32,000 nt of DNA from Candidatus Saccharimonadota bacterium. Lineage in GTDB: Bacteria > Patescibacteriota > Saccharimonadia > Saccharimonadales > UBA4665. The stretch covers positions 420,001-452,000 of the forward strand of contig CP064992.1 in assembly GCA_016699935.1 (NCBI GenBank). Direction: 5' to 3'. The notes under the pieces were generated by a model, which did no database searches, was not told where the DNA came from, and worked only from the letters and a program-made list of their open reading frames with translations. Made by a program: the position numbers and the translations under genes. Shown piece by piece: positions 4,131 through 27,164 of this stretch; the first letter of the stretch is position 1, and every line of letters starts with the position of its first letter.

Positions 4131-4138
4131 GCTGCTAT

Positions 4139-6297: not shown

Positions 6298-7800
6298 CTA
6301 TAGATCAGCACTGCTTATAACTACATAGTTTTTGGGGAAAGCCGCCTTGTCGATAATACTCCTCAGGTCCCGCTGAACCATTTTTTCATCTCGGGCCTTT
6401 CTCGACGCACTATCATAATATTGTGGAGTAATAATAACTAGATTTCTATAGACGGAAACAGAAGAGACGGTTTCTGACCGTAGTACATTGAGAACAATTT
6501 TATCTATGGGATTAGTTTCTGTGGTCTCACCGTCCCCGATAAGCAAACCAATTTTATCTTGTCGAATATCAACGAGGCAGAGCAAGTAAGTGTCACCGGG
6601 CGCAGGTGAAAAACCACACGGGCGGTAATCTCCGAACGTGTAATCATAGAATCCAGAATCACTCAAAGGATTGTACGACATGACGCCCAGTGAAGAGACA
6701 ATACGAAGGTTCGATGAAGAAGTTTCAAACATATCAGTTACACCAGGAATCACATAGAGCTTCCTTGGCTTTGATTCAGAAATATCATAAACAGCCATTC
6801 CAGCCAGGCCAATCGCGCAGAGACGCCCTTGCCCACAAGTAGTTGCAGAGGAATATATGTTTGGTAGGATGAAGTGTTTTTGTTTTTGCTTATTGTATAC
6901 GATGACCTCGGATGTGCCAGCAAGTTCTGTCGTGGCCGTCATATCATTTTCGGGGTTCAAGTTCTCGGTGGTTGAGTTTTCGCTGTATAAAATTATGATG
7001 TCGTCTTTGTGTGTGCGAACGCCGGCTATACTAAGGCCATTTTGGCGAGGTAACTCGGGGCGAAGGCGGACCGATGACATATCTACCGGATTAATATAAA
7101 AATAGTCGGCTCTCGAGTTTTCGTAAACCAACACACCATTTCCATATGGACGGATCTCATACACGTAGTTTGGATCAAGTGCATCAATCCTCACACGCTC
7201 AGCTCCAACTAAATCCGAGTTTATAACTTGCAGAGAATAACCGGCCAATCCTTCAACATCCTTCAATAGCGCAACATAATCTCCCGCGCGGGTTGTTGCC
7301 ATGCCAGCCAGTTCCCCATAAAGGTTATTTGATGATAGCTGTGTGCTGTATGAAGGAGTATAACCGGATGCTGGCAAGTGTTTCTCGATCCGATAGGCGG
7401 AACCATCACACTCGGCCGAGAACATCGCATCACCAATAACGTATGCACAGGGAGAGGGGTTATTGCCAACAAAGCTGCGTGATTTTTCACGAACAAGCCC
7501 TACATCGATGGATATACTTCTAAGAAGGCCCTGAGTTTTTCTTACTGCAAAGAAGTTTTTAGAGTCTTGCTGAACCACAATCTGGTAAGTGTCATTTTTT
7601 ACAACCCGCTTTACGATCTTGTCCGACGAACGAAAAGATGTCGCAACCCCAGAGCTATTGATAAACCGATACGTTCTCGCATGTGAGGTATTATTGACTA
7701 AATAAATATACGAGTGGCCCCATATCCAGGATAAGCCAATAAAACAAACACAAGCAAGAATAAAGGCGAGCACTAGTTGAATTTGTTGTCTTTTTTGCAT
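6298..7800 (-). CDS. Hypothetical N-terminally membrane-anchored, beta-rich extracytoplasmic protein (last gene of the T4SS operon)
   Basis: Probable start MQKRQQIQLVLAFILACVCFIGLSWIW gives a single N-terminal TM. About 470 aa of Ser/Tyr/Asn-rich sequence follow, with no family I recognise. Its ATG overlaps the upstream stop (TAATG at 7798..7802). Its stop is 2 nt from the convergent recF stop. Confidence 0.6.
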   Translation of the reverse strand: MQKRQQIQLVLAFILACVCFIGLSWIWGHSYIYLVNNTSHARTYRFINSSGVATSFRSSDKIVKRVVKNDTYQIVVQQDSKNFFAVRKTQGLLRSISIDVGLVREKSRSFVGNNPSPCAYVIGDAMFSAECDGSAYRIEKHLPASGYTPSYSTQLSSNNLYGELAGMATTRAGDYVALLKDVEGLAGYSLQVINSDLVGAERVRIDALDPNYVYEIRPYGNGVLVYENSRADYFYINPVDMSSVRLRPELPRQNGLSIAGVRTHKDDIIILYSENSTTENLNPENDMTATTELAGTSEVIVYNKQKQKHFILPNIYSSATTCGQGRLCAIGLAGMAVYDISESKPRKLYVIPGVTDMFETSSSNLRIVSSLGVMSYNPLSDSGFYDYTFGDYRPCGFSPAPGDTYLLCLVDIRQDKIGLLIGDGETTETNPIDKIVLNVLRSETVSSVSVYRNLVIITPQYYDSASRKARDEKMVQRDLRSIIDKAAFPKNYVVISSADL

Positions 7801-9065
7801 TAACGGCCCCTCCAAGGGTAGCTGCAACCTATCGTAGGAAGTTGTTTAATATCCGGTACGTTCGTGCTCTTGCCAATTGCCATAAGAAGGTTTTGCGGGC
7901 AAACGACTTTGCCATTAGTTTTAATAGCAAAATGCAGATGAGGGCCAGTCGAATTTCCGGTGCTTGCAGAGTGCATAATGAGCTGACCAGCCTCCACAGT
8001 ATCTCCTTTTTTTGCCCCAGGAACCGAACCACCGTCGCTGCCATGACCGTATTGCATTACAACCCCCCCTCCCACGTCTATTATAACGCCGTAACCAAGA
8101 CCCTCGGTCGCCGTACCTGCCGGTGCTGAAGTTATCTTGCCGCCTGCGACAGCGTACACCTTTTGACCGGGAGGCACGGGTATGTCGGCGGCAGGATAGT
8201 CGTGGTGTGGCTTCGAAAACCATTCTGGGTGCTGGTCAAACCACTTTTTATCAACTGGCAAGCTATAGTTTCCATTCAGAAAAGAACTTGAGCCCCCGTC
8301 CCCACAGCTAACAGCAGACGCCTGGTCACTAGAAGGGAACGAACCATATTTTTTCATAGCGTCAATTGCATAAGAAAGACGAGCGCTAACGCTACCAGAT
8401 TGATCTGCTGGCCTCTCGTACCCGACATACTTTCCGCCCGTTTTTTTATTTCCCTGGAACGCTAAGACGGCTTCGCGCAAATCGACCTGTTGCTTCAGGT
8501 CGTCGCCCGCCTGTTTTTCAGGGATGGAGGTTTTCCCTTCTAGCTGGCTCCAGACGAAAGCTATCTGTACGCCGAGGTTATTTGCTTCTGCAACAGTGTG
8601 CGCTGCCGTTTTTGTCTCTGGATTGACTGAGCTGATGAACTTCACGCCAGGAGTCCACTGTACAAGACCCCAGCCAGCGGTCGAGCCGCTCTCGAGGTAT
8701 TGTTCTGCAGTTGTTATTTGACTGGCTGGGGTGTTTTGCTTTCTTTGTGGCAACAACCCAGATTCTACCACCATATTCCCTATAATCCCCGCAGCTTGTA
8801 CTGGGGTTAGTCGCCCAGGCTCTGTCAGGTAATCGAAGATTGCTTTTCCGTTTTGTTCACTTGATCCGTTGGGTATATTAACGCCACCCGCAAGACAGCC
8901 CAAAAGCACCTGGTTTTTTTCGTACCAGACACTTCCAATAAGCACCATATCGAGGGCGTCACCATCAAGCGGTTCAGCGGTTGCGACGACGACATTGCCT
9001 AATATAAGGAGTACGCTAAGAATAGCCAAGATACTTTTTAAACGATTACTACATTTGTTTTTCAC
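7800..9065 (-). CDS. Secreted bifunctional peptidoglycan hydrolase: phage-tail-lysozyme-like domain plus C-terminal M23 (LytM) metallopeptidase, VirB1 analogue
   Basis: Signal peptide MKNKCSNRLKSILAILSVLLILGNVVVATA. Lysozyme-like motif AAGIIGNMVVESGLLP...GWGLVQWTPG. M23 motifs HHDYPAADIPVPPGQKVYAVAGGKI and STGPHLHFAIK. A GTG start overlaps the upstream stop (GTGA at 9062..9065). Confidence 0.75.
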   Translation of the reverse strand: MKNKCSNRLKSILAILSVLLILGNVVVATAEPLDGDALDMVLIGSVWYEKNQVLLGCLAGGVNIPNGSSEQNGKAIFDYLTEPGRLTPVQAAGIIGNMVVESGLLPQRKQNTPASQITTAEQYLESGSTAGWGLVQWTPGVKFISSVNPETKTAAHTVAEANNLGVQIAFVWSQLEGKTSIPEKQAGDDLKQQVDLREAVLAFQGNKKTGGKYVGYERPADQSGSVSARLSYAIDAMKKYGSFPSSDQASAVSCGDGGSSSFLNGNYSLPVDKKWFDQHPEWFSKPHHDYPAADIPVPPGQKVYAVAGGKITSAPAGTATEGLGYGVIIDVGGGVVMQYGHGSDGGSVPGAKKGDTVEAGQLIMHSASTGNSTGPHLHFAIKTNGKVVCPQNLLMAIGKSTNVPDIKQLPTIGCSYPWRGR

Positions 9066-10812
9066 TGTGGTAACGCCCCATACGCCTTAATAAGTATAGG
9101 TTGTAGGTTAGACGATTGAGCATTTCCCTGGATTACTCCCTGGTATGCCTGGAGGTGCAGATGTGGCTGTGTACCTTGTGCGCAAGCAGGCTCCCCAATC
9201 ACGCCTAACGTCTGCCCTTGCTGTATCTTTGCGCCAACCTCTGTTTTTAGGAGCGACCCGCCACGAAAATGTGCATAGAAATAGTAATTACCATCATCTC
9301 CTTTTATTTGTATACTGGGGTACCCACCAAGCTCTGGAGAGCAAGATGGCTTTGGTTTGTAGGTAACCACAGTTCCCCTACTGCGGCAACAATCTCAGTA
9401 CCCGGGGTGTCGAAAATATCTGCAGCCGGGTAGTCGTGGTGGCAGTTTGTTTGGCTGGTATAGCACCAAACCCATTTGGTTAATTTATAAGTCGCGTCTT
9501 GGTACTGCGCTGTCTTGATCCTGGTCTGTGTAGTTTTAAGAGGGAACGTAAAGTTACCCACCGTGCCAAGCTCACCGCCAAGCGTAACCGCTGTGTTCGT
9601 TGCGGGCGGGTTAGGTAAAAGACTCTTGTCATACAAACCAGCTCCAGCTGCCACGGAAGCACGAATCAAGAGGCAGGGGTTTGTTTGGTCATGTTCAGGA
9701 ACCTGGCTTATTTCGTTAATACGCGTTGTTGAGTTCCCCCAGGTAACTATATTGTTTGGATCGTCACACTTTGCCGACTCCCAATAGGCCTCTGGGTCAT
9801 TTATAAAAATTTGGTCATCCTCTGGGTAGCCGTACTGAGTAATGCCAAAAGGATCTTTTTCCGGTAGCTTAGCTGCTGCACTAGCATCACGCGATGCCAG
9901 AGAAGTAAGCGAACTCGTCAGCGACCCAAGTGGGTTCAAGGAAGTAGCTATCAAACTATCCTGCGCGCTACCTGAACTGCTCGGTACATTAAGCGCAATT
10001 TTTGATATAAGAGACCGACTGTTTTTTGTGTCAAACATCCGTGCGTACAGAGACGCCTGGCTATAGTCGTACTGCCTTTCTTCGGCATCGGCCTCGCGAA
10101 GCTGGGCTACCTGTGCATTTGAGAGCGCCTTTCCGCCCAGTCCAAAGTGTGCCGAATAGTTATTGAGTATATTCATTCCTCCGGCCATTGTCTCGAAGTA
10201 TCTAGCTCCACTTTCGTTTGGTGTAGACGCAATTATGTAGAATTTTTTAAACACGTCATCTTTTATCCATTTCATTAGCTGGACTAGTTGATCTGAGTTT
10301 ATTGCTGCAACGAGTTTTGCAAGAGGCTCTTTAACGAAGGCCAAAACATTATTTAGCAGACTATCCCTAACACTAACCCATACGTTCCCGATAAACCCCG
10401 GCAAAGCGAGCATTGGGTTATTTGTGATTCCTGCAATCGCAGCATTGGCTACGGTCACAAGGGCGCCCGTGGGGGAGCCTATAGCTACATTTGGGCAAAT
10501 GAGTGCGCCCGACGGATAACCTTGGCCATCATCGCACAGGGCCTTTGGTGTTGTACTTTCTGCGTATGCCGTTGGAAAGAGAGACGCCAACGGCTTTTGG
10601 CTCCCTCCGCCCATGATTGCACCATACAAAGGGCTGCTTTGTGCGCTACCCCCGCCTTGATCCCGCGACGAATCAGCTGCGTACAATTGTGAAAATGAGT
10701 TGAGCGTGGCCGGGTCAGCGGACCCGCTCATTAACTCACTTGCATACGTCAAAGCCATAGTTGCCGTACCAACCATAGCTGTCTCGTTCATGACATAGTT
10801 CATGTGCAACAT
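9062..10812 (-). CDS. Large protein with unknown N-terminal ~480-aa region and C-terminal M23 (LytM) peptidase domain, reading frame broken once
   Basis: ORF 9304..10812 ends in HHDYPAADIFDTPGTEIVAAVG. ORF 9062..9370 continues VVTYKPKP...YYFYAHF...GTQPHLHLQ. They join as ...AAVGGTVVTYKP... if the C4 run at 9375..9378 gains one base. An alternative start at ATG 10803 forms an ATGA overlap with the upstream stop. Confidence 0.7.
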
Positions 10813-11306
10813 GGCGGGTCCTGCTTTTGGGCACCGGTAATCAGGCTAGCGCCGAGGTCAATCCAACCAATAAAGGGAACCACCTTGACGGCAATTTTGG
10901 CTGTTGTTTCTCCGGCAAATTGTTTTATAAGGTATTCAACAGCGCCCTTCGAGCGGACTTCCTCAGCCTCTCTATTTATGTCAGTAATGTTTACTTGGTC
11001 ATGCGTCGATTGTAGGGCGAGAAGTCGCGCTTGCAGATCGCGTTGATAGTTTGTCATGCGCTCACCATTGCTGTCGGCGCTGCTCTCCAGGTCTGTACAC
11101 GCAAACCCCGCAAACGCACACTCAAGCGAGGTGCCAATAGAAGTGTTGAGTGGGGTTATAACACGCCGGAAAAATGTTCCCCTTGCCCAAGTAATGAGCT
11201 CTTGTTTGGTGGCTTTTATTTTCTTTCTAGTCTCACAAGCGACGATACAGTAACGGGGTCCGTACTTTCTACCTACAATAGGCTTTGCTATCGCCCAGAC
11301 ATACAT
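10800..11306 (-). CDS. Hypothetical protein (T4SS operon)
   Basis: 168-aa ORF co-oriented with and tightly packed against its neighbours. It has a helical charged middle (YQRDLQARLLALQSTHDQVNITDINREAEEVRSKG) and a hydrophobic C-terminal segment (KIAVKVVPFIGWIDLGASLITGA). I recognise no family. Its frame stays open upstream of the ATG, so fusion to 11321..12220 by an indel cannot be excluded. Confidence 0.5.
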   Translation of the reverse strand: MYVWAIAKPIVGRKYGPRYCIVACETRKKIKATKQELITWARGTFFRRVITPLNTSIGTSLECAFAGFACTDLESSADSNGERMTNYQRDLQARLLALQSTHDQVNITDINREAEEVRSKGAVEYLIKQFAGETTAKIAVKVVPFIGWIDLGASLITGAQKQDPPCCT

Positions 11307-11320
11307 TTTCTCCCTGAGCG

Positions 11321-12220
11321 TTAAGTCTTTTGTGGCTCGGCGTAGCTCCCGATTAAACTCCCTTTTCCTCTTAGCTGAGCAAAAGCCTTTCCTTCAAAAT
11401 CACGCGTATTACCGGTAAAGGTTCCCAAATCTATTCTGTCTTGTAGGTTTTTGCTGATTATAAATACTCTATTACCGGTACCTGTTGCCTCAAGTCGAAA
11501 CTCGATGCCTTTTTCAGCAAGCTTACCTTCTATGTTGGCGTCGCGCCAGGCTCGAAAGTTTGCAGTAACGATATTAGTTTTGCCACTAACATCGGCACAT
11601 GATTTTGTGCGCCGGGTGGTTGTACAGCCATTCTTTACCATACCAGGAACCAGGTACTTCACGACATAATAGTGAAATATGTTATCTCCCATTTTGCCGA
11701 CAGCTCGATTAGATACCGCGCTGTATGCATCATGAAGATTTGTTGGAATGTGAATAAACTGGAGCATAAGTAAGAATGAAAACCCTAAAATCCCCCTCCC
11801 CCAAGCACCGCACCAAAACCTCCAAACATCAACATCTTTTTCGTCTTGAAAGAAATGTTTTTTTCTTCGACTTCCCTTTTTCTTGTCCAGCGCTTCTTTT
11901 TCATCCGCACCAGCACCTGAGTAATTGAGGCTATCTGCAGCCTGGCTTTCTTTGTCGGATAGTTTTTCTGCGGAATCAAGTTTTGCTGACCCTGACTCTT
12001 TAGCGTCTGGGCTAGCAAACGAACCCTCAAGGTCGCTAAGGGCATTTTCGTCTGCAATGTTTGAGCCTGACTGGGACGACGAGGGCATAGCGAAATCCCG
12101 CTCAAGGTCATCTGCCGCAGGGGCGTTGTAGAGCTCCTCTAGCTGTTGCGGCGACATGTCTTGGTTGTCAAGGGTTTGTAGCCTCTTAGGTTTGTATTGT
12201 GCGTCGTCGTCTTGAGCCAT
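11321..12220 (-). CDS. Hypothetical bitopic membrane protein: acidic disordered N-terminus, one TM, ~150-aa external domain (candidate VirB8/TcpC-type scaffold)
   Basis: 299-aa ORF starting 2 nt after the virB4 stop. The first ~120 aa are D/E/S-rich. A basic stretch KKKGSRRKK and a hydrophobic segment FWCGAWGRGILGFSFLLMLQFIHI follow, then a mixed alpha/beta-looking C-terminal domain. The function is inferred from topology and context only. Confidence 0.5.
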   Translation of the reverse strand: MAQDDDAQYKPKRLQTLDNQDMSPQQLEELYNAPAADDLERDFAMPSSSQSGSNIADENALSDLEGSFASPDAKESGSAKLDSAEKLSDKESQAADSLNYSGAGADEKEALDKKKGSRRKKHFFQDEKDVDVWRFWCGAWGRGILGFSFLLMLQFIHIPTNLHDAYSAVSNRAVGKMGDNIFHYYVVKYLVPGMVKNGCTTTRRTKSCADVSGKTNIVTANFRAWRDANIEGKLAEKGIEFRLEATGTGNRVFIISKNLQDRIDLGTFTGNTRDFEGKAFAQLRGKGSLIGSYAEPQKT

Positions 12221-12222
12221 AG

Positions 12223-14148
12223 CTATGACAGGTTATTTGCGCTACCAGGGTATAGCTGATTTTGTAAATCGATAGTGCCCTGTGGTTGGTTTAGTTCCCC
12301 TTGCTTCATCGCTTGGACTTGTTGGGGGTTTGTTGTGATTAAGCCCGTCTCAGTTGGGCTGGCGACGATTTGGATATGTACATGATTTTGCCCAGCAAAG
12401 AAAAGCCCCTGACCGACTGGGAATTGTCCAAGACGTTTCTTTTCTTCCTCGGTGAGCTTAAAGACATCGCTCAGGACATCCACAGCACTACTCGATTGCT
12501 TGAGAAGGATCTGCATGCTGGCATTTGCAACAATGGCACGACCCATACGTGAACCCATAAAGTCCTCAACGTCTTGTGTTATGGTGGTAAGGCCAAGATT
12601 GTATTTGCGGCAGCGCTTGGCCATGCTGAAAAGGAAATTGGCGCTGTCCTCGTATTTCATGAGCTGCCAGGCCTCGTCGACGATGAGGATGCGTTTCTTT
12701 TTGCTCGCTTTTAGTCTTGTTCCAAATGTAGTTGAGTACGATGTACATAGCGACGGGACGCAGCTCGTCTTCCAGGTCGCGGACGTTGAACACGACTAGT
12801 GGGTTGTTGATATTGACATTGCTTTGCTGGCTGAATATACCTGCGAACGTGCCACTCGTGTATTTGCGAAGACGTTGTGCGAGTTGGGGCCGGTACCACC
12901 CATATGAAGCAGCGTGTCATACAAGTCTGCAATGGTTGGTGGCAAAGAAGAATGTGTCAGAGGGTCTTGTGTAATTCCAGCCTTTGCATAGGTGTCTATG
13001 AGTGCGGCATCCAGGTCTGCTTCTTCTGTGGGTGATAGTGCTGGAGCGAGCGTGCTGTTCCCTCCAAGCATCTGAGCCTGAGCGCCCCCCATCATGAGCC
13101 GCAAGAGTCCATGGAGCGTAATCAGGTTTGAGCGCAGCGCATTGTCTGCTTCCTCGTTGTCGACTACCTGAGGGAGGTCAAATGGATTAATACGTGTGGT
13201 GCTGTTGAGGCTAAGCCGGACGTATGCGCCGGCCACCGCATCACACATGCGTTCATATTCGTTCTCTGGGTCGATGATGAAAATCTCCGTACCGAACATC
13301 AGGCTTCGCAAAGCCTCCAACTTAACAGTGAAGCTTTTCCCTGCGCCCGCCTTGGCAAAGACGACTGAGTTACCGTTTTCAAGGCTGAAGCGGTCAAAGA
13401 TGACCAGACCACTATTGTGCATGTTGATGCCGTACAATATGCCATTGTCCTGGCTGAGGTCGGCGCTCGTAAACGGAAAACTAGTGCTAATTGCGCCGGT
13501 GCTCATGTTGCGGCGGATTTGGAGCTGGTCGGTCATTTGAGGTATTACGCTATTAAGGCCTTGCTCTTGTTGGGAAGTTGCCGCCTTGCTGTATACGAGT
13601 TGTTGACCAAGCATGCTCTCAACCTTGTGGCTGACAAACTCAAGCTCTTCCTGGCTCGTAGCGTATATAGTGAAATACAAACCGAACCGGAAAAAACGCT
13701 CCTCGCCGACTTGAAGCTTGTCGCGCATTTCCTCGGCGTCTAGGATGGCTGCTTGTTTACCGGGGTCGCGCACTCGACCCTTCTCGGAATCTATCTGAAG
13801 ACCAGCTTCGAGCTGAGTAACTTTTTTGCGAAGGTTTTCAAGGACAACTTGGCTTTCTACGGGGTATACATAGATAGAAAGATCCATTACCTCGTCAAGA
13901 TTGACGAGGCCGCTTAACCACCCCGTGTAAATCTGTCGGGGGTAGCCGTAAACGTAGTATGTACGAGCAAGTCGTGTGCCAATCTGGAAGTGCGTGCTAA
14001 AAAACTCAATACTACTAGGTGCTATAAAATCTCGTAGTGCCGTAATACCCCTACGAAAAGCCTCATTTACTTCTGCTTGCTCTTTTGCCTGCTGAACCTG
14101 GGCTAATGCAACAGGGTCAAGGGTTGGTTTTTTCTTACCAAAGGCCAT
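12223..14148 (-). CDS. virB4: VirB4/TrsE/ConE-class T4SS ATPase, reading frame broken twice
   Basis: The start MAFGKKK at 14148 has GGGAGG 8 nt upstream. Walker A is VVFAKAGAGKSFTVK, Walker B is RILIVDEAWQLM, and the C-terminal part reads RCRKYNLGLTTITQDVEDF...NASMQILLKQ. ORFs 12796..14280, 12566..12793 and 12223..12660 join at G4 12886..12889 (...GGTGPQLAQRLRKYTSGTFAGIFSQQSNVNINNPLVVFNVRDL...) and at T5 12698..12702 (...SEQKKRILIVDEAW...). Confidence 0.85.
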
Positions 14149-14221
14149 TAGGAACGCCTCCCATGTGCGCGAGGCAAGAGCAATCTTTGTTGCATCTGAA
14201 ACACATATAATAATGCAAACA

Positions 14222-15076: not shown

Positions 15077-15098
15077 GCCTACGTCCTATCTTATCGAC

Positions 15099-16230
15099 TT
15101 AGCGAAGCGAGATTACAACTTCGCCGTCATCATGATCTGTTTCTTTTTTCACCTGCCGGGCAATAGTTGCGACGTCCAAATCATCGTTACTCGCGAGGTT
15201 CATTATAGCAGCCTGTCTCTCTGAAGTCACTTGTGCTTTTTGACGTTCGGCTTGTTGTTTTGTGGCTATTGCTGCTGCTTCATTCTGTTGGTTAACTCTC
15301 CGCTCCTCGGCTAGCTCTGCGGGAGTTTTGATGTGCTTCAAGTGGTCGTTAGCCGTTGTTTGTGTTTGGCTCGCCGTCTTAAGCTGCTGAGCCAAGGCTT
15401 CTTCCTCGGCGGTTGGTGTGGCCGCTTGTGTTACCGCGGGCGGTTCGCTAGCAGACGTCATGCCCGGCGCAACCACGGCGGCATTATCAAAGGTAGCTTG
15501 CCCGGCTACTGGCGGGGGTTGGTGCATAAACCAATAGTCATTCTGGGGGGTGCTTTGAGCTGATTGTGTCGGTGGTGGCAATGCGGGAGCCTGCATTAGC
15601 TGTATAAGCTGCTGTCGTTGGCTGGTAGCGGCACCGTGAATCATGGCATCAAAGTGTTGTGCGATTGGGCTTGCGCTTGGGTCGAGCATATCATCTGCTG
15701 CACGTATATCAAGCCCGCTCACCTCTTGCGGTAATGACATTGCATCGACAAGACGGTCTGACGCTACAGCATCAGACTGAAGGCCAGTAGAAACGCTCAC
15801 GTTTACGTTTTTAACTGCCCACCCTCGACTATCGATTGTATCGGCAAGAGCATGTAGTCGGCTTCTTACCTCGATCTGACTTAGTCCGTTTGTTAGACTT
15901 CGCTCAATCTTTTTGGGCACTGTAATGGTTACGAGTTCCTTGGCACCGCTTTGATCCCAGATGCGTTTGCGAGGCTTAAGTAAAAAGCGTAACTTCGCAA
16001 TGGCCCATACCTCAGTGGGTTGGTCGCCGTGCCAAGGAATGGCCAAAAACCAGCGAAGAGTGCGGGTGGAACAAAAAAAATGAGTAAAAATCCAACATTT
16101 TTTGTGAGGGCAAAAAGGAAAGATACAACAGGAAAGCCGAAATCGCAGCATAAATAAATTGCCGCAAGGACAATGGCCCAACGAGCTTATCTTCCGCTTC
16201 AACATCTTGCAAAACCTTATACGTCGCCAT
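15099..16230 (-). CDS. PrgI-family (VirB3-like) small-TM T4SS protein with a long Gln/Ala/Pro-rich C-terminal extension, reading frame broken twice
   Basis: The start MATYKVLQDVEAEDKLVGPLSLRQFIYAAISAFLLYLSF is the PrgI-family opening common in CPR genomes. A third frame supplies TM2 (FALTKNVGFLLIFFVPPALFAGF). The frame of ORF 15099..16205 then continues LAIPWHGDQPTEVWAIAKLRFLLKPRKRIW. The joins need +1 base in each of the A5 runs 16112..16116 and 16045..16049. Confidence 0.7.
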
Positions 16231-16285
16231 ACTGCTTATAGTATAACAGCACATTGGCAGCATCTGATGAGTGTGCACGGTATGC

Positions 16286-18437
16286 TTAGATTGTGGGCGC
16301 TTCGGTCATAGCAGCACGCCTGGCGGCCTCACTCATGCGTCCGCTTGAGTATTCGCGTCGTCTTGACGTGAACAAGTCAATGAGCTCTTGGTTCGCGCGT
16401 ACGTCGCTATTGCCGCGGCAGTAATCCATTATTTCCTGAGTTGACGCTGATCCTCCCCGTGCGTCTAATAGGGGTTGTAGAATTGTACGCATACCATCAG
16501 AGAGTTCCTCGGAGTAGTACTGCTGTTGTAATTGTGTGGCAAACTGTTCGCGAGCGTCAATCGAAGCACCCGAAGCCATGTCTTGGAAATTAGCGAAGGT
16601 TGCGAATTCGGATGCCAGTGTGTCCATGTCATTACTACCCGTAAGGAGACGATTGCCGTTACTTTCAAAACCGTCCATATTGCTGGTGAGGGTTGCGTTA
16701 AGACGCATACCACCCTCTCTGGCAACTTTTCGTGCCGTTCGTAGGTTGCCTAACTCGGCTTGGCTATTGCGCATGCTCTGGTATGATTGACTTCGCAGCA
16801 AATTTTCTTCATCGACGGTAAGGGCGCCATTGCCTTGCTCACCCATGGTAGCGATTCCTACGCGTTGGCTGAACGTCATGCCGCTAAAATCAGCACGGGT
16901 TTGGTTTTGGCCTAGGATGCCGCCGATATCTTCGTCGCTCATGACACCTTGCTTAATGAGATGATTTGAAGCTTCAGCAATAGCCCGAAAGTCCGTTTCG
17001 TGTGTTTCTTCATTAAACCACCCAGCCCCATCCATAGTTTGGCCACGGAAAGCGGCTGCCTTCATCGCTCGACTACCCATAGTTGTCCCAGTACCGGCTT
17101 CAAGCTGGGCCATACGCATACGTGCTCGTTGTTGCATTTGATGCTCACTAAGACCTTCTTGCGTCATAGCGTGCCTGTTCCTATTGACGTATTCGCGTAG
17201 ATAATCACCCCGCGAATTTGCGTAGATGGCGGGTATGGTCGCGTCGGTTGCCCCGAGTGAAAAGCCCTTGTCTTTTTCGGCTCGTTCGGCCGCTGCGTCC
17301 TGGATTAGCTTTTTCTCAGCCTGCCTATATTGACGCCTTCCAGATCGAGTCATGCTAACGCCTCCTTGCCTTGCTAGGGTGCTACGGCGGGCATATCCTG
17401 TCACAATTCCTGGACCCCTCTTGGCCCCAGTGGCATATTCGCCTTTTCTGTACTCAGAGCTATCGTGTAGGAACTTATTGCCACGTCCCATTGCCTTGCT
17501 ACCCAAGCCACTCGCCCAACCAATCGCTCCTCCCAGAACACCGCTGAATTTTTGTGCAATGGGTATGATGAGTAATATTGGCCCAAAGAAAAGAATGACC
17601 ACGAGTAAATAACCACCCGGCAGGTTATCCACTTGACTTGTGACCCGCGCCATTACCTCACCAGATGCAAGCAGGGCCATAATAACGGGGAATATTGTAA
17701 GGCTTGTCAGGGTTGTATTTTTCCAAAAAGACCAGATTTTTGGGTGCCAGGCAGTACGTATGACGCAATAGCGAGTGGTGCGAGTAATAAACAAAGCATT
17801 ATAACAATCCATCTTAGACCAAATATCATAAAGGCGATGAGTAATATCAGGCCAATGATGAGGAGTATAGTTGCAAACCCAATCCCTCCCAAGAAATACA
17901 GTTTCGGGACGCCCGTCACAATTAAAAGCAAAAGTGACGCCCAGTTATAAACTCCATTCGAGCTATCAACTTTCGCAATGGGCATAGTGGCAAATGGTCC
18001 GACGAGTATATCATGTGTCCAGCTTCCGATGTCGTTTGTTAGTTCTATAAAGAATTGCATGAGGTTCCAGGACAGGGCTATGCCCACGAGCGCAACGCCA
18101 AGACGAGGCATAAGCTTGCGTATAGTGTAAGCATCCAAAAATTCAAACCCGAGTGCTTGACTAATCACCATAGTTAGTCCAGCGATGACGATGATTGCAA
18201 TAGCAATGTTCCGAAAGCTTGCCCAGGCGTTATGCAGGTTGTCGGTTGCCTGTCCTGCTCCAGTTTTGCCAAAGACATCTTGAGACGGGAAAACATGAGC
18301 CCTTCGATATTTTGTGTCATTGAGCGCATGAATGCCTGCAGGCCTGAGGTCACAGGACAAATGATCCATTCCATAGTATCACCGTCAAACCCGCAAAGGC
18401 TCGTCGGGGCATTACCTGCGCCGTTATTATTAGTCAC
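16286..18437 (-). CDS. VirB6/TrbL-like polytopic T4SS membrane protein with a ~430-aa soluble C-terminal extension, reading frame broken twice
   Basis: ORFs 18174..18437, 17707..18369 and 16286..17812 join at 18287..18293 (...IEGLMFSPSQDVFGKTGAGQ...) and at T5 17737..17741 (...VLPGTQKIWSFWKNTTL...). At least 6 hydrophobic helices are present (IAIAIIVIAGLTMVI, LGVALVGIALSWNLMQFFI, LLLLIVTGVPKLYFLGGIGFATILLIIGLILLIAFMIF, IVIMLCLLLAPLAIA, LTIFPVIMALL, GYLLVVILFFGPILLIIPI). A GTG start overlaps the upstream stop (GTGA at 18434..18437). The family call rests on topology and context. Confidence 0.6.
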
Positions 18438-19474
18438 GCCCCGAGATTTGGTACTTTTGTTTTGCCGATCGCGCCGGTCGCCTTATCACTTTGCCCCCAT
18501 GTACAGGCGGCATTTGTAGCCCGGAGTGCTTCCGGCATGCCGGAAGCAAACGGATAGTTTTGGGTGCAAAAGTTTGCGTTCGTCTTGTTGTTAAACCCAT
18601 CCTGGCATGCCTTTAGCTCCGCAGAGCTACCGCTATAACGGTCTTCGCATGTTCCAGGTTGGTTACCTTGACCAGGCGTGTAGTTACTAAGCCACTCCTG
18701 TCCCACTACTGGGTCTGCCGCAAGACTATTAATGCTCTGAACCACTGTGCGACAATTAACCTGTTGCGAGTTGTACATGTCTTTACGGCTTATAAGAGCG
18801 TTTGGATTGTACTGCCGCCTTTCGGTTACAAACGTTCCATCAGGTTGTAAGACCTTTACGTCTACGACATCATCGGCTAAGCCCTGGCTGGTGTTGTTGT
18901 CTTTTGCTTCACACTGATTCAGAAACCCGAGCCAAAGAAAATATGAATATTGCAACAGCTTACTATTGCCATATGCAGCAAAAACGTCAAAACCAGTGTT
19001 GGAGTTAATAATGGCTTTAACTTTATTGCCGGTAGCCTGGTTTGCATCGAGGGCAATCTGACTTGAGTTATTTAAGTCAGAGCATGTCCCGTCACGTCGT
19101 GCGCCAATATCACACAAAAAATTTAGAGCGTCCTGCGGGACTGACCATGGAATCCCGAGAAAACTAATGGCTTCTGTGGCGTAAGTCTTATCATTACATT
19201 TCCGCGGGTCTTTCCCCGTGAGGCCTGTCGCAATGCTATTGCCTGGCCCGACATTCATGCTGTTTACGCTGGCATCGCCACTCATGTCAATGCTGTAACT
19301 ACCGCTACTAAAGCAATTGACGAGCCATGAGCTGTAGTAGAAGGCGCGAGCTTTATCCCAGGGATAAGAAGTTGGGTTGATAGCCGCAAAAGCTTTCATA
19401 TTAGGTAGCAGAACCAGTACTGCTATGGCGGCAACTACAGATAGTCCCACAAAGAGTCGACGCAATTTGCTCAT
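18434..19474 (-). CDS. Secreted cysteine-rich protein of unknown family (candidate surface or pilus-associated component)
   Basis: 346 aa with signal peptide MSKLRRLFVGLSVVAAIAVLVLLPNMKAFA. About 12 Cys residues are spread through the mature part (VNCF, RKCND, FLCDIG, GTCSD, NQCEA, VNCRT, GTCED, KACQD, NFCTQ, AACTW). It has its own promoter-like element just after the 19541..19579 hairpin. Confidence 0.6.
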   Translation of the reverse strand: MSKLRRLFVGLSVVAAIAVLVLLPNMKAFAAINPTSYPWDKARAFYYSSWLVNCFSSGSYSIDMSGDASVNSMNVGPGNSIATGLTGKDPRKCNDKTYATEAISFLGIPWSVPQDALNFLCDIGARRDGTCSDLNNSSQIALDANQATGNKVKAIINSNTGFDVFAAYGNSKLLQYSYFLWLGFLNQCEAKDNNTSQGLADDVVDVKVLQPDGTFVTERRQYNPNALISRKDMYNSQQVNCRTVVQSINSLAADPVVGQEWLSNYTPGQGNQPGTCEDRYSGSSAELKACQDGFNNKTNANFCTQNYPFASGMPEALRATNAACTWGQSDKATGAIGKTKVPNLGA

Positions 19475-19540
19475 GGTTTAACTATACTATTAAAGCCGTT
19501 TTTACCACAAGGCCAATAGAATGCATACGTAGCTATGCTA

Positions 19541-19579
19541 CTAAAAGAAGCTGACATGCCATATGTCAGCTTCTTTTAG
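19541..19579. terminator. Bidirectional intrinsic-terminator-like hairpin between two T4SS-locus genes
   Basis: Perfect 17-bp inverted repeat ctaaaagaagctgacat / atgtcagcttcttttag with a 5-nt loop. The GC-containing core is followed by TTTTAG on either strand. It lies about 120 nt downstream of the 19702 stop. Confidence 0.6.
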
Positions 19580-19701
19580 TATGATTGGCGGGGCTTATGA
19601 ACCGAGCTCCATATAACCAGGCTGCTGGGGTGCATATGATCGCACCGAAACCCAGCGTGCTTCCGCGGGCTGGCCCGCTACAGCAGGAAACTTAACAAAT
19701 T

Positions 19702-20679
19702 TCATTTGCCTCTGGCGGTAGCCACCATCGTTGTAGAAGTTGATGCGCATTCCCTCTCAGGTTTGTCTGTTCGTGCGCTATCCATTGCGGTGTTGCGCTC
19801 GTAGCCATCATTTTGTGGATTTATTGCCTCCTGTGTTCGTAGAAGTGTAACTTTTCGGAGGAGGTCATCCTCTGGCAAGGCTGGGTCATCATAAATAGCG
19901 AAGAGGGTCTTGAGTGCAGTTTCGATCTTGGCTGGGTTAACAGTTGGGCTGCCATTGCGCGTCAGTGACCATGAGATTTCGGTATAGGTGGTTATCCACT
20001 GGTCGACTATTTCTTGTGCGGTATTTGTTTCTGAAGCAGGCGCCGGTTTCACATAACGGTCTATCTTGTGAGATTCGGCGACTTGTTTGCGGGTGTATGG
20101 CTCTTGGCCTTTTCGCATGAATTGCGCGAATAAACGACGCTCTTCTATGGGATACGCAAAATATGCCGGACCCCAAGGGGTACCGTTGAGCCTGTCAATA
20201 ATCTCCTTCTCGGCGGCAGTCAGGGAGTTGTACAGCGGGTTCGTCTCTACGCCAAGTATGTTCGCACTTGCCTCTGGAGTTAGGAGACCAGCGTCAGCAC
20301 CTTTGCGAGTTGGATCAATTTGTCTAGCGGCCGGTGCAGCCCCCTCTCTGCTACGAGAAAATGCATAGACTCCTCCTAATCCTGCTACTGCTAGCCCAAA
20401 AACGCCACCTAGTACTGCTCGTCGTGATGGACGACCAGCTGTGCCTTGTTGTTCGGAAGCTGTTGAAGGCGGTGGTAATGCTGGTGCCTCTTTGGTTTGT
20501 TGTTCGGGAGCTGTTGAAGGCTGGGTTGGTAATGCTGGTGTCTCGGCAACATCGGGTTGAAATGCCGCCTCCGTCGTTGTGGCAGCTAATGACGCAGCGG
20601 TTGTTTCACGAGACTGCTCGCTACCGACTCCTATGTCCAGTCGTTTCGGTTCAGGTTGTCTTATCACTACATCTGTCAT
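19702..20679 (-). CDS. Hypothetical bitopic membrane protein (first gene of the minus-strand T4SS operon) with a Pro-rich repeat-bearing N-terminus
   Basis: I prefer the ATG at 20679 (MTDVVIRQPE), which has AAGGA 6 nt upstream, over the GTG at 20700. The N-terminal ~95 aa are P/T/Q/A-rich and contain a duplicated PALP..PST(A)(P/S)EQQ unit. A segment RPSRRAVLGGVFGLAVAGLGGVYAF (one TM) follows, then a ~220-aa C-terminal domain of unknown family. Confidence 0.55.
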   Translation of the reverse strand: MTDVVIRQPEPKRLDIGVGSEQSRETTAASLAATTTEAAFQPDVAETPALPTQPSTAPEQQTKEAPALPPPSTASEQQGTAGRPSRRAVLGGVFGLAVAGLGGVYAFSRSREGAAPAARQIDPTRKGADAGLLTPEASANILGVETNPLYNSLTAAEKEIIDRLNGTPWGPAYFAYPIEERRLFAQFMRKGQEPYTRKQVAESHKIDRYVKPAPASETNTAQEIVDQWITTYTEISWSLTRNGSPTVNPAKIETALKTLFAIYDDPALPEDDLLRKVTLLRTQEAINPQNDGYERNTAMDSARTDKPERECASTSTTMVATARGK

Positions 20680-20731
20680 CTTATTCCTTTCGACAATCAC
20701 CCAGATTGTTCAACACATTATAATCGAAAAC

Positions 20732-20760
20732 ATTTTAGCATAAACATAACATATTGTCAA
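20732..20760 (-). promoter_or_regulatory. Near-consensus sigma-70-type promoter for the minus-strand T4SS operon
   Basis: The minus strand reads TTGACA (20760..20755), a 17-nt spacer, then TGc-TAAAAT (-10 at 20737..20732). It lies about 50 nt upstream of the ATG at 20679. Confidence 0.55.
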
Positions 20761-20814
20761 TGTGAGTTTTATCACTTTATTTCAGATTCTTTTAATGGGT
20801 TTTACGGTTGTGGC

Positions 20815-20843
20815 TTGAAGGAAGTCGCTGAGCATTATATAGT
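20815..20843 (+). promoter_or_regulatory. Candidate promoter for the pilin operon
   Basis: TTGAAG (20815..20820), a 17-nt spacer, then TATAGT (20838..20843). The first pilin ATG is at 20855 with no Shine-Dalgarno sequence between, so the 5' UTR would be very short. Confidence 0.4.
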
Positions 20844-20854
20844 GGTGCATAAGC

Positions 20855-21679
20855 ATGAACATGCGCACAAAAACACTTTTTGCTATTGTGGGGCTTATTA
20901 TAATGGGCACCGCTCTCATGTCGCTACCAGGGCGAGTATATGCGTCTGTGGGTGATGTGGCTAACTGCCCGACTGGCCAAACTAACTTGGTCAAAAGTCC
21001 CCGGACATGCTGCCCAACAGGTCATCATACTGATACTCAGGACTGTTTTGTCGCAAAATACGTGAACCCAGCAATAAAGTTGTTCAGCATGATTGCCGGT
21101 GTTGCAATAATTGCGGGAGTTATTATGGGGGGTATACAGTATTCTGCCTCAACAGGAGACCCGCAAAAAGCCGCCGCTGCGAAATCCAAAATATCCAAAG
21201 CGCTCGTAAGTCTTATGGTGTTTATGTTTTTATTCGCTGGTATCCAGTTTATGTCTCCCGGAGCGCTGAATAAAACCTCCACGCCAGCAGCTGGTACGGG
21301 ATCGCTTGCTACGCGTTGCTCAAAGCCGTTTCTTGGTCTTAAGCCTTGGTTCGCGTATCTCCCTGATGATGCCTTTGCGGATGGTTCTGGTGGGGGAAAG
21401 ACGTGTGATGTTACAAACTTTAAGCTTTTAGGAGACGACAGCACGAAGAGCCATTTACTACCAGTTGTGTTAGCGCTTGTCGATACACTCGTGCGAGTGG
21501 CTGGGCTTGTTGCGGTAGGGTTTGTGATTACTGGTGGGATTTTGCTGACGACGAGCCAAGGAGAGCCAGATAAAACTAAAAAGGCTCGCGAGACAATCAT
21601 TAACGCCCTAATTGGACTTGTTGTAGCTATAGTGGCTGCAGTGGTCGTATCTTACATAGGCGGGAGACTTTCGCAATGA
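20855..21679 (+). CDS. T4SS pilin (TrbC/VirB2-like, CPR/Gram-positive type), tandem two-domain form
   Basis: Signal peptide MNMRTKTLFAIVGLIIMGTALMSLPGRVYA, then a Cys-rich stretch NCPTGQTNLVKSPRTCCPTGHHTDTQDC. Two pilin cores follow: IAGVAIIAGVIMGGIQYSASTGDPQKAAAAKSKISKALVSLMVFMFLF and VAGLVAVGFVITGGILLTTSQGEPDKTKKARETIINALIGLVVAIVAAVV. Confidence 0.75.
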   Translation: MNMRTKTLFAIVGLIIMGTALMSLPGRVYASVGDVANCPTGQTNLVKSPRTCCPTGHHTDTQDCFVAKYVNPAIKLFSMIAGVAIIAGVIMGGIQYSASTGDPQKAAAAKSKISKALVSLMVFMFLFAGIQFMSPGALNKTSTPAAGTGSLATRCSKPFLGLKPWFAYLPDDAFADGSGGGKTCDVTNFKLLGDDSTKSHLLPVVLALVDTLVRVAGLVAVGFVITGGILLTTSQGEPDKTKKARETIINALIGLVVAIVAAVVVSYIGGRLSQ

Positions 21680-21975
21680 TTAAACTATTTGTTCGTCTTG
21701 CTGCAGACATTGACTATACGTCCTTGCCAAACACCGGAGCTACCGGTGATGTTGCGAAAGATTCTATCCCCGAGATACTCCGTATAGTATTTGGCATTTC
21801 GGGCTCTATTGCGTTCCTCATCATTGTTATTAGTGGGCTGAGATATATATTAGCAACCGGCGATCCTGCCAAAATGGCTCAAGCAAAAAAGGGAATCCTT
21901 TACGCGGTCATAGGATTGGTCATTGCGCTTTCTGGCTACTCAATCGTTACTCTAGTCGTAAGGGGGTTGTCGTGA
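21676..21975 (+). CDS. T4SS pilin paralogue (short form, no obvious signal peptide or cysteines)
   Basis: 99 aa with an ATGA overlap to the previous gene. Pilin core: ISGSIAFLIIVISGLRYILATGDPAKMAQAKKGILYAVIGLVIALSGYSIV. Confidence 0.7.
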   Translation: MIKLFVRLAADIDYTSLPNTGATGDVAKDSIPEILRIVFGISGSIAFLIIVISGLRYILATGDPAKMAQAKKGILYAVIGLVIALSGYSIVTLVVRGLS

Positions 21976-22391
21976 TTGGGGCAGTGGGCGTTCGCATACT
22001 CCGACGGGCCACCACGTTTGTGGTGATTTGTGCAGTCATGGGTGCGATTACGACGGCGTTTCCGAGTAGGGTAGACGCAAAAAGCATTATTAGTGACGCA
22101 TGTGCCACTGCACCAGATTCAGAAACTTGTAAAAGCGATAGTGCAAATGCTACTCAAAATCCGCTTACTGGGACTTCAGGCTTCATCTATAAGGTTTCTA
22201 GAATCGTTGCCCTGGTAGCAGGTATGGCGGCTATTATAGTAATAATAGTGAGCGGTATTCGCTACATGACATCGGGTGGAGATAGTCAGAAAATATCGTC
22301 AGCTAAGGGGACTCTGGTCGGTGCGGTTATAGGGCTGGTAGTTATTGTATTGGCGCAAGTAATAATAACGTTTGTAATTAAGAGGTTATAA
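21972..22391 (+). CDS. T4SS pilin paralogue
   Basis: GTG start in a GTGA overlap, with AGGGGG upstream. Signal-like N-terminus RRATTFVVICAVMGAITTAFPSRVDA. Cys pair in DACATAPDSETCKSD. Core: VAGMAAIIVIIVSGIRYMTSGGDSQKISSAKGTLVGAVIGLVVIVLAQVIITFVI. Confidence 0.75.
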   Translation: MIGAVGVRILRRATTFVVICAVMGAITTAFPSRVDAKSIISDACATAPDSETCKSDSANATQNPLTGTSGFIYKVSRIVALVAGMAAIIVIIVSGIRYMTSGGDSQKISSAKGTLVGAVIGLVVIVLAQVIITFVIKRL

Positions 22392-22394
22392 GAT

Positions 22395-22874
22395 ATGAAG
22401 CATGGTATAAAGGCGTTCTTCTGTGCCCTTGCGCTATCGATGGGCATAAGTGGTATTGTTGTGATTTCAGGCTCGTCCAAGATGGCTTATGCGCTGACAC
22501 CAAATCAACAGGCAGTCTGTGAGGCTATCGATAGTGGCGCTGACTGTAAAGATGATACTCCGGGGGGAGGAACCCAAATTGACTCTGTTATAAAAACAGT
22601 CGTTCGCATATTAGGTGTAGTCGCAGGCATCGTGGCGGTTATTATGATTATTGTTTCGGGTATTAAGTATATAAGCTCAGGCGGGGATAGTAGCAAGGTT
22701 GCGAGTGCAAAGTCGGCACTCGTGTACGCTATTGTTGGATTATTTATCGTTGCGTTGTCACAGGTAATCGTTCGCTTTGTATTAAGCCAATCTACCCAAG
22801 CAACCGTTACTTGTCCGCCCGGCCAATCTCGCAATGCTGATGGTTTATGCGTGATGAAAGTAGAAAAACTTTGA
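22395..22874 (+). CDS. T4SS pilin paralogue with an extra C-terminal Cys-loop extension
   Basis: AGAGG RBS. Signal peptide MKHGIKAFFCALALSMGISGIVVISGSSKMAYA. Cys pair in AVCEAIDSGADCKDD. Core: VAGIVAVIMIIVSGIKYISSGGDSSKVASAKSALVYAIVGLFIVALSQVIVRFVL. Tail: TVTCPPGQSRNADGLCVMK. Confidence 0.75.
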   Translation: MKHGIKAFFCALALSMGISGIVVISGSSKMAYALTPNQQAVCEAIDSGADCKDDTPGGGTQIDSVIKTVVRILGVVAGIVAVIMIIVSGIKYISSGGDSSKVASAKSALVYAIVGLFIVALSQVIVRFVLSQSTQATVTCPPGQSRNADGLCVMKVEKL

Positions 22875-22937
22875 GTTGAAACCATCAATCATAAGTGGTA
22901 TAAAGAAAGTAATCAAAAACGAAAGGAATTACTTAAT

Positions 22938-23369
22938 ATGATAAAAAACTTTAGGACCAAGCTCGCTATTTTTTTTGCAGGCGCAGCGCTTTTGGCTGTA
23001 CCATTGTTGGTGTCTACGCCAGCAAGCGCTGCTGTAGATATCGGCAAATGTGTTGGCCAGGGGGTGGATATAAATGGTGCAATTGACGGGGAATGTACCT
23101 CAACCTCAGATGAACCGGGTGCAGGAAATACAGATATTACTGATGTAATTACACTCATAGTGAATATTTTCTCAATAGTGGTTGGCTTTCTTGCGGTCAT
23201 TATGATTATTTGGGGCGGTCTGCGTTATATTACTTCTGGCGGTGATAGTGGCAAGATTACCACGGCAAAAAACACCATAATTTATGCACTCATTGGTCTT
23301 GTGATTGTCGCCCTTGCTCAGTTCATCGTTCGATTCGTACTTTCCAAAGCGGGCGATATCGCGCCGTAA
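22938..23369 (+). CDS. T4SS pilin paralogue
   Basis: AAGGAA RBS. Signal peptide MIKNFRTKLAIFFAGAALLAVPLLVSTPASA. Cys pair in GKCVGQGVDINGAIDGECTS. Core: VVGFLAVIMIIWGGLRYITSGGDSGKITTAKNTIIYALIGLVIVALAQFIVRFVL. Confidence 0.75.
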   Translation: MIKNFRTKLAIFFAGAALLAVPLLVSTPASAAVDIGKCVGQGVDINGAIDGECTSTSDEPGAGNTDITDVITLIVNIFSIVVGFLAVIMIIWGGLRYITSGGDSGKITTAKNTIIYALIGLVIVALAQFIVRFVLSKAGDIAP

Positions 23370-23434: not shown

Positions 23435-23461
23435 TATAGCCCTCCTTTGGGGAGGGCTATA
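23435..23461 (-). terminator. Terminator-like hairpin downstream of hsp20
   Basis: Stem tatagccctcc / ggagggctata with a 5-nt loop. It lies 20 nt beyond the hsp20 stop and is followed on the minus strand by AT-rich sequence. It is convergent with the pilin terminator. Confidence 0.55.
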
Positions 23462-27019: not shown

Positions 27020-27106
27020 TCACAAAGTACTTTAACTTTGAGCCGAACGATTTGTTACGGCGCCGAAAGGGCTACTGCGTATGTAGTTGTGCTCGTAGCT
27101 AGCTAA

Positions 27107-27164
27107 TGCGCGCGTCTCCTTGGCGTCCGCCCCTACTTCGTAGGTTCTCGCATGCTGGCGCATG
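27107..27164. repeat. Copy 1 of a 58/59-nt direct repeat (non-coding)
   Basis: tgcgcgcgtctccttggcgtccgcccctacttcgtaggttctcgcatgctggcgcatg. It is identical to 27267..27325 except for one extra base in the tctc tract. It contains an internal hairpin cctac-ttc-gtagg. Confidence 0.8.

Follow-up and report, generated by a model that had tools for sequence, protein, structure and literature searches.

The stretch analysed here is a window of 32 000 nt (contig CP064992.1, positions 420 001 to 452 000, of the Candidatus Saccharimonadota assembly GCA_016699935.1), which carries between 6298 and 23369 a type IV secretion system (T4SS) locus built as two divergent operons. The map of open reading frames (ORFs) bears out this architecture, which had been proposed in an earlier, sequence-only reading of the window: the minus-strand genes all read in one direction between 20679 and 6298, and five pilin genes at 20855–23369 make up a divergent operon on the plus strand (NCBI locus tags across the region, IPL68_02760 to IPL68_02825). 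The eleven minus-strand genes counted in that reading are not borne out. Merging of raw ORFs via their collinear matches to single long proteins of relatives gives a corrected count of eight, in the order 20679–19595 (first gene), 19474–16286 (VirB6-like protein), 16230–15099 (PrgI), 15076–14222 (TrsD-like protein), 14148–12223 (VirB4), 12220–9062 (large post-virB4 protein), 9065–7800 (secreted wall hydrolase) and 7800–6298 (last gene). The locus is confined by core genes, as the same reading had stated. Just 2 nt separate the recF stop (6293–6295) from that of the last gene of the locus (6298–6300), and hsp20 and comFC follow on the right, as confirmed by coordinates and Pfam matches.

The VirB4 ATPase gene (12223–14148, minus strand) encodes 641 residues once two indels are repaired, a 1-nt deletion at ∼12887 and a 1-nt insertion at ∼12704, both located by DNA alignment to the corresponding locus of a relative (L002). 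The repaired protein aligns at 96% identity and with no gaps to the VirB4 of a relative (P0001), and is 87–97% identical to the VirB4 proteins of hundreds of Saccharimonadales genomes. It contains a Walker A (GAGKS) and a Walker B (ILIVDEAW) motif, scores 358 bits with the NCBIfam CD1110-family model NF045971 (cutoff 325), and matches the Pfam families P-loop_TraG (95 bits) and AAA_10 (50 bits). Among PDB sequences, the VirB4 entry 4AG5 is matched at E = 1.5e-48, and TrwK at E = 6e-5. The features of the VirB4/TraC family are all present, but solely after repair of the two indels, and it is for the repaired protein that NCBIfam, Pfam and PDB-sequence matches uphold the initial VirB4 call.

Upstream of virB4, an intact minus-strand gene (14222–15076) encodes a TrsD-like protein of 284 residues, identified through NCBIfam matches to VirB4_plasma (positions 98–284, E = 9e-7), TrsD (E = 6e-5) and the CD1110-family VirB4 (positions 2–88); its orthologs carry a precomputed Pfam TraC-like match. 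In the CD1110-family model NF045971 the TrsD-like protein covers positions 2–88 and VirB4 positions 175–732, and in NF045975, the VirB4 model of mycoplasma integrative conjugative elements (ICEs), the two proteins cover 98–284 and then 284–890. As both align to consecutive parts of the models, the pair looks like one canonical monoderm VirB4 that is encoded split. A direct hhalign comparison of the TrsD-like family with the VirB4 family of these loci gave no signal (probability 0.14%, with shallow alignments). The earlier description of this product as VirB4-N-like is upheld by its TrsD match and by the N-terminal positions that it occupies in monoderm VirB4 models. The PrgI/VirB3-like protein encoded next (15099–16230, minus strand, 377 residues after repair) is disrupted by two T6-to-T5 deletions, at ∼16116 and ∼16049, as determined by three-frame comparison with orthologs. 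The raw ORF gives no match to Pfam PrgI, whereas the repaired protein scores 41.1 bits (cutoff 27), such that the PrgI call holds after frame repair only. The protein is composed of two N-terminal transmembrane (TM) helices, with segments at residues 24–68, and a long hydrophilic tail.

The five plus-strand products all exceed the Pfam T4SS_pilin cutoff (range 46–62 bits), in agreement with the five T4SS-pilin paralogues first proposed, and each has a signal peptide and a two-helix hydrophobic hairpin. Pilin 1 (20855–21679, 274 residues) matches T4SS_pilin at 62 bits in two stretches and carries two tandem VirB2-like domains behind its signal peptide. Pilin 2 (21676–21975, 99 residues; 49.8 bits, plus TrbC) overlaps pilin 1 through an ATGA, and pilin 3 (21972–22391, 139 residues; 46 bits, plus TrbC) overlaps pilin 2 through a GTGA. 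Pilin 4 (22395–22874, 159 residues; 47.7 bits, plus TrbC) and pilin 5 (22938–23369, 143 residues; 56.4 bits, with TrbC at 30.7 bits) complete the array. Pairwise identity among the six pilin domains is 20–51%. The five proteins also score 23–38 bits with the NCBIfam Mbov_0395 pilin-like family, below its cutoff of 40 (E from 1e-9 for pilin 1 to 5e-5). These matches suggest that a monoderm T4SS lineage may contain pilin-like proteins, contrary to the usual statement.

As deposited, the locus contains ∼11 single-base frameshifts, and five of its eight minus-strand genes are frame-disrupted, namely the first gene and those for the VirB6-like protein, PrgI, VirB4 and the large post-virB4 protein. 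The deposited protein set consequently includes truncated products, such as IPL68_02825, which is without its final ∼53 residues. In-frame stops or frame changes in five of eight genes are what would be seen if the disruptions were real and the system were being lost from this lineage. Lesions of the same type are, however, found outside the locus, with the essential dnaN split at ∼4620, recF out of frame at ∼5540–5770 and carA split at ∼28450–28780. Three 6-to-5 homopolymer deletions can be read exactly against orthologs (the T-runs at 16116 and 16049 in PrgI and the A-run at 17741 in the VirB6-like gene), and eight of the ten inferred frameshift sites coincide with homopolymers of at least 4 nt, a pattern that matches long-read homopolymer error. 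Outside the shifted stretches the proteins are highly conserved, as the gapless alignment of the repaired VirB4 illustrates. Decay of the locus is thus very improbable, and the frameshifts are almost certainly sequencing errors, given that dnaN, recF and carA are also hit and that the homopolymer deletions are exact. The IPL-prefixed metagenome-assembled genomes (MAGs) presumably derive from a nanopore activated-sludge study. Stop-codon reassignment was ruled out, as TAG, TGA and TAA occur mixed, and in out-of-frame stretches between paired indels.

The corrected frames also bear on the four gene junctions that had been described as tightly coupled. All four motifs are present, and the GTGA at 9062–9065 and the TAATG at 7798–7802 are genuine overlapping gene junctions, but the ATGA at 10800–10803 falls within the sixth gene (12220–9062) and results from a frameshift. 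The GTGA at 18434–18437 probably has a similar origin inside the second gene, since the frames become continuous when one G is added back to the G-run at 18442.

The first gene of the minus-strand operon (19595–20679, ∼359 residues after repair) is deposited in truncated form, its raw ORF, which is 100% identical to NCBI protein IPL68_02825, ending at 19702. A frameshift near 19760 places the C-terminal 53 residues, which match homologs, in another frame. The fast-evolving product is anchored in the membrane, with a disordered Pro/Ala/Thr-rich N-terminus, the motif SRRAVLGG, one TM helix (∼88–108) and an extracytoplasmic domain. Just five remote homologs were found among 1.84 billion representative sequences. 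A family hidden Markov model matches positional equivalents in other loci, and an iterative search recovers four of them in 82 loci; as the gene evolves too fast, no synteny-wide statement is made for it. Its family profile matched nothing significant among PDB sequences, and a single-sequence AlphaFold2 (AF2) model was unusable, with a predicted local distance difference test score (pLDDT) of 40. Between the repaired stop of this gene at 19595 and the start of the VirB6-like gene at 19474 lies a perfect 19-bp inverted repeat with a 5-nt loop (19539–19581). It begins 14 nt past the stop, with an AT-rich stem and no clear T-tract, and is a possible attenuator or processing hairpin.

The second gene (16286–19474, minus strand) encodes a polytopic protein of ∼1060 residues, distributed in the deposited sequence over frames −2/−1/−3/−2, with the inferred breaks at 18442, ∼18267 and 17741. 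A signal or TM segment is followed by a Cys-rich ectodomain of ∼380 residues, ∼6 hydrophobic helices (415–649) and a hydrophilic C-terminal domain of ∼410 residues. The ORFs at 17707–18369 and 16286–17812 are collinear with single proteins of 900–1170 residues in 36–62 relatives, and an A6-to-A5 deletion clearly marks their junction at 17741. The N-terminal 346-residue ORF would belong to the same gene, an assignment for which the evidence is weaker and consists of its position, the G-run at 18442 and a score of 44 bits for the stitched sequence with a profile of relatives' N-termini. The VirB6/TrbL call of the sequence-only reading has weak support from sequence. The topology fits, as does the structure-based annotation of Southlakia epibionticum SEML1_0013 as TrbL/VirB6 (PMC10633639), but the repaired protein has no Pfam, NCBIfam or PDB-sequence match, and just one of 15 orthologs matches TrbL (E = 1.9e-4). 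The ortholog at locus L001 carries a precomputed TrbL_3 match, and the ortholog profile found nothing relevant among PDB sequences. In the T4SS operon of one close relative (L002, 5247–5864), a gene for an IS200/IS605-type Y1 transposase sits between the VirB6-like gene and that for PrgI.

Directly after virB4, a large gene (9062–12220, minus strand) encodes a protein of ∼1050 residues and is interrupted by three frameshifts, near 11360, 10818 and 9352. Its ORFs (299, 168, 502 and 102 residues) are collinear with single proteins of 880–1300 residues that start just past virB4 in relatives, and a large gene is present at this position in 76 of 82 loci. In the protein, which is the counterpart of SEML1_0007, a disordered N-terminus and a membrane segment precede a large central region that is conserved, and the M23 peptidase domain at the C-terminus is split by the last frameshift. 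A Pfam scan of the last 350 residues of 75 sequences (74 relatives and the window copy) reveals that the C-terminal enzyme differs between species: VanY in 24, M23 in seven (the window included), CHAP in two, GDSL lipase in two, and one sequence each with tyrosine phosphatase, Amidase_2, beta-lactamase-like, M14, Exo_endo_phos, NlpC/P60 and M15. A statement of such a swappable domain was not found in the literature, in a search that was not exhaustive, and it is possibly a new detail. A conserved scaffold with a species-variable enzyme end resembles polymorphic effectors; ordinary variation of a T4SS wall hydrolase would account for it equally well.

The following gene (7800–9065, minus strand) encodes a secreted wall hydrolase of 421 residues, the counterpart of SEML1_0006, with a signal peptide, a Phage_lysozyme2 domain (73 bits) and a Peptidase_M23 domain (69 bits); NCBIfam M23 endopeptidase families are also matched. 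Its start overlaps the upstream stop through the GTGA noted above. A segment coding for HHDYPAAD recurs in both M23 domains of the locus. The two M23-type hydrolases originally called are therefore both confirmed by Pfam, one of them split by a frameshift. The last gene (6298–7800, minus strand), which overlaps the upstream stop through the TAATG, encodes a 500-residue surface protein anchored in the membrane and 100% identical to NCBI IPL68_02760, in which an N-terminal TM helix is combined with a beta-sandwich and a beta-propeller. An AF2 model from eight sequences (pLDDT 78, predicted template modelling score 0.76) retrieves generic 6-bladed propellers from the PDB with Foldseek. As homologs occupy this position in just five of 82 loci, and other species, S. 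epibionticum among them, carry small exported proteins of PEGA/prealbumin-like type there, the operon tail is lineage-specific.

Promoter-like sites point toward both operons from the 175-bp divergent intergenic region (20680–20854). On the minus strand, TTGACA-17-TAAAAT with a TG (20760–20732) is the best sigma-70-like match in the region scanned, and on the plus strand TTGAAG-17-TATAGT is found at 20815–20843; both are consensus matches only. Where the pilin operon and hsp20 converge, a GC-rich hairpin with an 11-bp stem (23435–23461) lies between their ends and is a likely terminator by pattern match only.

The position of the locus was compared across 80 species-representative genomes, chosen by VirB4 similarity out of at least 556 matches in the collection and hence biased to close VirB4 relatives (83–96% identity). 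In 57 of the 58 genomes with enough flanking sequence, virB4 is followed 4.6–8.7 kb downstream by a convergent recF (median 5.9 kb, equal to the 5.9 kb of the window). The divergent pilin array is found in 50 of 54 loci, and TrsD-like and PrgI genes directly upstream of virB4 in all 54. Patchy presence, which the sequence-only reading had named as the mark of an ordinary element remnant, is excluded by these frequencies. That reading had also placed the locus about 2 kb from the origin, and DnaA-box clusters at 2310–2412 and 3890–4067 indeed put its left end 2–4 kb from the likely origin. Pfam searches of all sizeable ORFs in the 32-kb window revealed no relaxase, VirD4-type coupling protein or integrase, and no att-like direct repeats were found around 6298 and 23369, as had been reported at the outset. 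A remnant of an ICE that came to rest beside recF and is without relaxase, coupling protein and integrase would explain the MPF-FATA conjugative type of VirB4, TrsD and PrgI, and ancestry from conjugation systems is indeed supported (PMC12102498). Such a remnant is nevertheless exceedingly improbable: position and order are kept in 57 of 58 species-level genomes, VirB4 amino-acid identity is 83–97% across species, att repeats, integrase and any break in GC content across the locus are absent, and the ortholog is essential (PMC10633639). Synteny, the absence of mobility genes from the window and published work instead support a fixed chromosomal organelle, not a conjugative element, as first suggested.

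Accordingly, we read the locus as a conserved chromosomal T4SS of Saccharibacteria, conjugation-derived and of monoderm (MPF-FATA-like) type, no longer linked to DNA mobilisation and with a fixed place next to the replication origin, with a probability of roughly 0.88. The traits of this group are found together in the window: a VirB4 of the group, TrsD and PrgI upstream, a pilin array, hydrolases directly downstream of virB4, and no mobilisation genes. Other points weigh against it. If the deposited sequence is taken strictly, the frame-disrupted locus might not work in this organism; membership of the polytopic protein in VirB6 is weakly supported and not demonstrated from sequence; no match to a VirB8-like component (PrgL/TraM, NTF2-like), for which the first gene is the candidate, was found in the window; and the role of the T4SS is still given in print as 'completely unknown' (PMC11665869).

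From the known roles of the families, VirB4 and the TrsD-like protein, anchored by PrgI, would energise the VirB6-like channel and form with it a membrane translocon, the VirB6-like polytopic protein being a probable channel part. The hydrolases would open the cell wall, either that of the epibiont itself or that of the host, and the pilins would assemble a pilus or tube at the site of host contact. That the locus serves host interaction, as had been proposed from the sequence, matches the published essentiality of the orthologous cluster in epibiotic growth (PMC10633639). As to the direction of transport, we tentatively favour uptake of host macromolecules or nutrients over effector export, while holding even this at somewhat less than even odds. 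Uptake is favoured as coupling protein and relaxase are both missing from the locus and these organisms cannot make nucleotides; as the only VirD4 homolog of S. epibionticum is dispensable (PMC12102498); as comEC is not needed even though nucleotides have to be taken up, the T4SS being a proposed candidate for this (PMC11665869); and as a preprint on host-RNA feeding describes tubular structures, possibly T4SS pili, at the parasite–host interface of the feeding organism (bioRxiv 10.64898/2026.06.21.733656). A machine that mainly delivers toxins, effectors or hydrolases into or onto the host, like the Ptl and Brucella VirB systems that are without coupling protein, is a close, if somewhat less favoured, rival. 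Effector delivery has been speculated on in print (PMC11665869, PMC10633639), protein-exporting T4SSs without coupling protein exist (PMC12102498), and the species-variable enzyme domains of the post-virB4 protein have the look of polymorphic effectors. However, no effector or recognition signal is known, the locus contains no coupling protein, the VirD4 homolog that S. epibionticum encodes at a distance is non-essential (PMC12102498), and peptidoglycan is the target of most variable domains, which could simply serve channel assembly, as do PrgK, TraG and CwlT. It appears unlikely, though conceivable, that the post-virB4 protein is a polymorphic 'warhead' aimed at the host envelope and not at the cell's own wall, which, along with the divergent pilin array and the first and last genes that are specific to the lineage, would adapt the T4SS as a device to penetrate and feed on particular hosts. 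The interchangeable domains offer a concrete handle on whether the machine attacks the host wall.

The remaining features of the window were assigned from the ORF map and Pfam. Left of the locus, genes for a KH-domain protein, yidC, rnpA and rpmH on the minus strand are accompanied by dnaA (2405–3853), dnaN (4121–5228) and recF (5249–6295) on the plus strand. Right of the pilins follow hsp20 (minus) and comFC (plus), two tRNA-Ser genes, a PD-(D/E)XK protein gene, tRNA-Arg, a further tRNA-Ser, and carA–carB. Both carbamoyl-phosphate synthase genes, carA (frameshift-split) and carB, are present at 27890–32000; the lineage is usually described as being without de novo nucleotide and amino-acid synthesis. 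Beside tRNA-Arg (27365–27439), an imperfect direct repeat of ∼90 nt occurs at 27089–27177 and 27249–27338 (73–90% identity, spaced 160 nt), and a 180-residue ORF that overlaps the repeat and the tRNA gene has no family match. Among the relatives, two contigs with Saccharibacteria-type virB4 (L003, 96%; L073, 87%) are filed under MAGs of Ferruginibacter sp. and Candidatus Dormiibacterota, probably through binning contamination.

Comparison with MPF-FATA systems (pCF10 Prg/Pcf, pIP501 Tra, pGO1 Trs and the Clostridioides difficile CTn CD1110) reveals a shared core of TrsD, PrgI and a VirB4 that scores above the CD1110 cutoff, membrane-anchored multi-domain wall hydrolases (cf. PrgK and TraG), and an absence of outer-membrane core proteins. 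Unlike these systems, the window locus has no relaxase, oriT or coupling protein, lies off any mobile element, and has neither a PrgB-type adhesin nor a recognisable VirB8-like PrgL/TraM, whereas it does contain VirB2-like pilins, which are said to be absent from MPF-FATA. The hydrolase domains also differ, being M23 and phage-tail lysozyme in the window and SLT and CHAP in MPF-FATA. With Helicobacter pylori ComB and archaeal Ced the locus shares a VirB4-type ATPase in the absence of coupling protein and relaxase. ComB, like the window, has VirB2-, VirB3- and VirB6-like parts, but is a diderm system with VirB7–10. The window VirB4 gives weak matches to the CedB and CedD models, although Ced is archaeal and its other parts are unrelated, and the likeness in uptake is a functional analogy proposed in PMC11665869.

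Mycoplasma ICEs (Mbov_0395/0397; CDS15–17 of ICEA) resemble the locus in that the window pilins match Mbov_0395 and the TrsD-like protein best matches the N-terminal part of the Mbov_0397 VirB4, all below cutoffs, whereas the mycoplasma elements are mobile, encode VirD4 and are without cell-wall hydrolases. A recent review regards the small mycoplasma ICE proteins as VirB3-like and not as pilins. The pilins and the split VirB4 of the window may have been inherited from a Mollicutes-ICE-like monoderm ancestor and not borrowed from diderm systems.

Closest are the T4SSs of Patescibacteria. A survey of this group describes a VirB4 clade sister to MPF-FATA with TrsD, PrgI/VirB3, VirB6 and VirB2 arrays of 2–11 divergent pilins (Quinonero-Coronel et al. 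2025, PMC12102498). Most of the clusters are without relaxase, and a position near dnaA/dnaN is described (PMC12102498); VirD4-like genes are, according to the literature, often located elsewhere in Patescibacteria genomes. The window locus shows no essential difference from this clade, which includes Nanosynbacter lyticus TM7x (McLean et al. 2020, PMC7427843), and is a further member of it, with pilin-domain identities (20–51%) within the range of the survey (PMC12102498). A 2025 review devotes a paragraph of its own to the Saccharibacteria T4SS. The locus has thus been identified correctly, but its description is already in print (2020–2025), including the absent relaxase and the origin-proximal position.

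The S. epibionticum cluster has been described as like Gram-positive conjugative T4SSs in composition, and neither relaxase nor coupling protein can be recognised in it (Wang et al. 2023, PMC10633639). In strain ML1 its order is dnaA, dnaN, recF, two small exported proteins, a lysozyme protein, a 1113-residue protein, VirB4, a 293-residue protein, PrgI, a 998-residue protein, a TAT/NTF2-like protein, a 1088-residue TrbL/VirB6-like protein, six pilins, Hsp20, ComF and tRNA-Ser (PMC10633639). As gene order and both flanks match (dnaA–dnaN–recF on one side, Hsp20–ComF–tRNA-Ser on the other), the window region is, with the same high confidence as to identity and general role, the ortholog of this T4SS (SEML1_0004/0006–0019). 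The two share hydrolases, the large protein, VirB4, the TrsD-like protein, PrgI, the VirB6-like protein and divergent pilins. They differ in that the window has five pilin genes (six domains) against six genes, and one VirB6-like giant plus the 359-residue first gene against the giants 0011 and 0013 plus the TAT/NTF2-like 0012; SEML1_0012 is NTF2-like, whereas the first gene of the window is without a PDB-sequence match. At the operon tail, the 500-residue beta-propeller protein of the window stands against the small PEGA and prealbumin-like 0004/0005, and its lysozyme-plus-M23 protein and C-terminal M23 domain stand against three lysozyme-like domains. To the published picture the present analysis adds a corrected gene model, quantified synteny, coordinate-level evidence for the split VirB4 and the interchangeable post-virB4 domains. 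Nearly all genes of the S. epibionticum cluster, pilins included, are essential for epibiotic growth by transposon sequencing in this one species (PMC10633639). This monoderm, pilin-bearing machine is the first T4SS reported as essential to its own carrier and a leading candidate for the means by which ultrasmall epibionts draw on their hosts.

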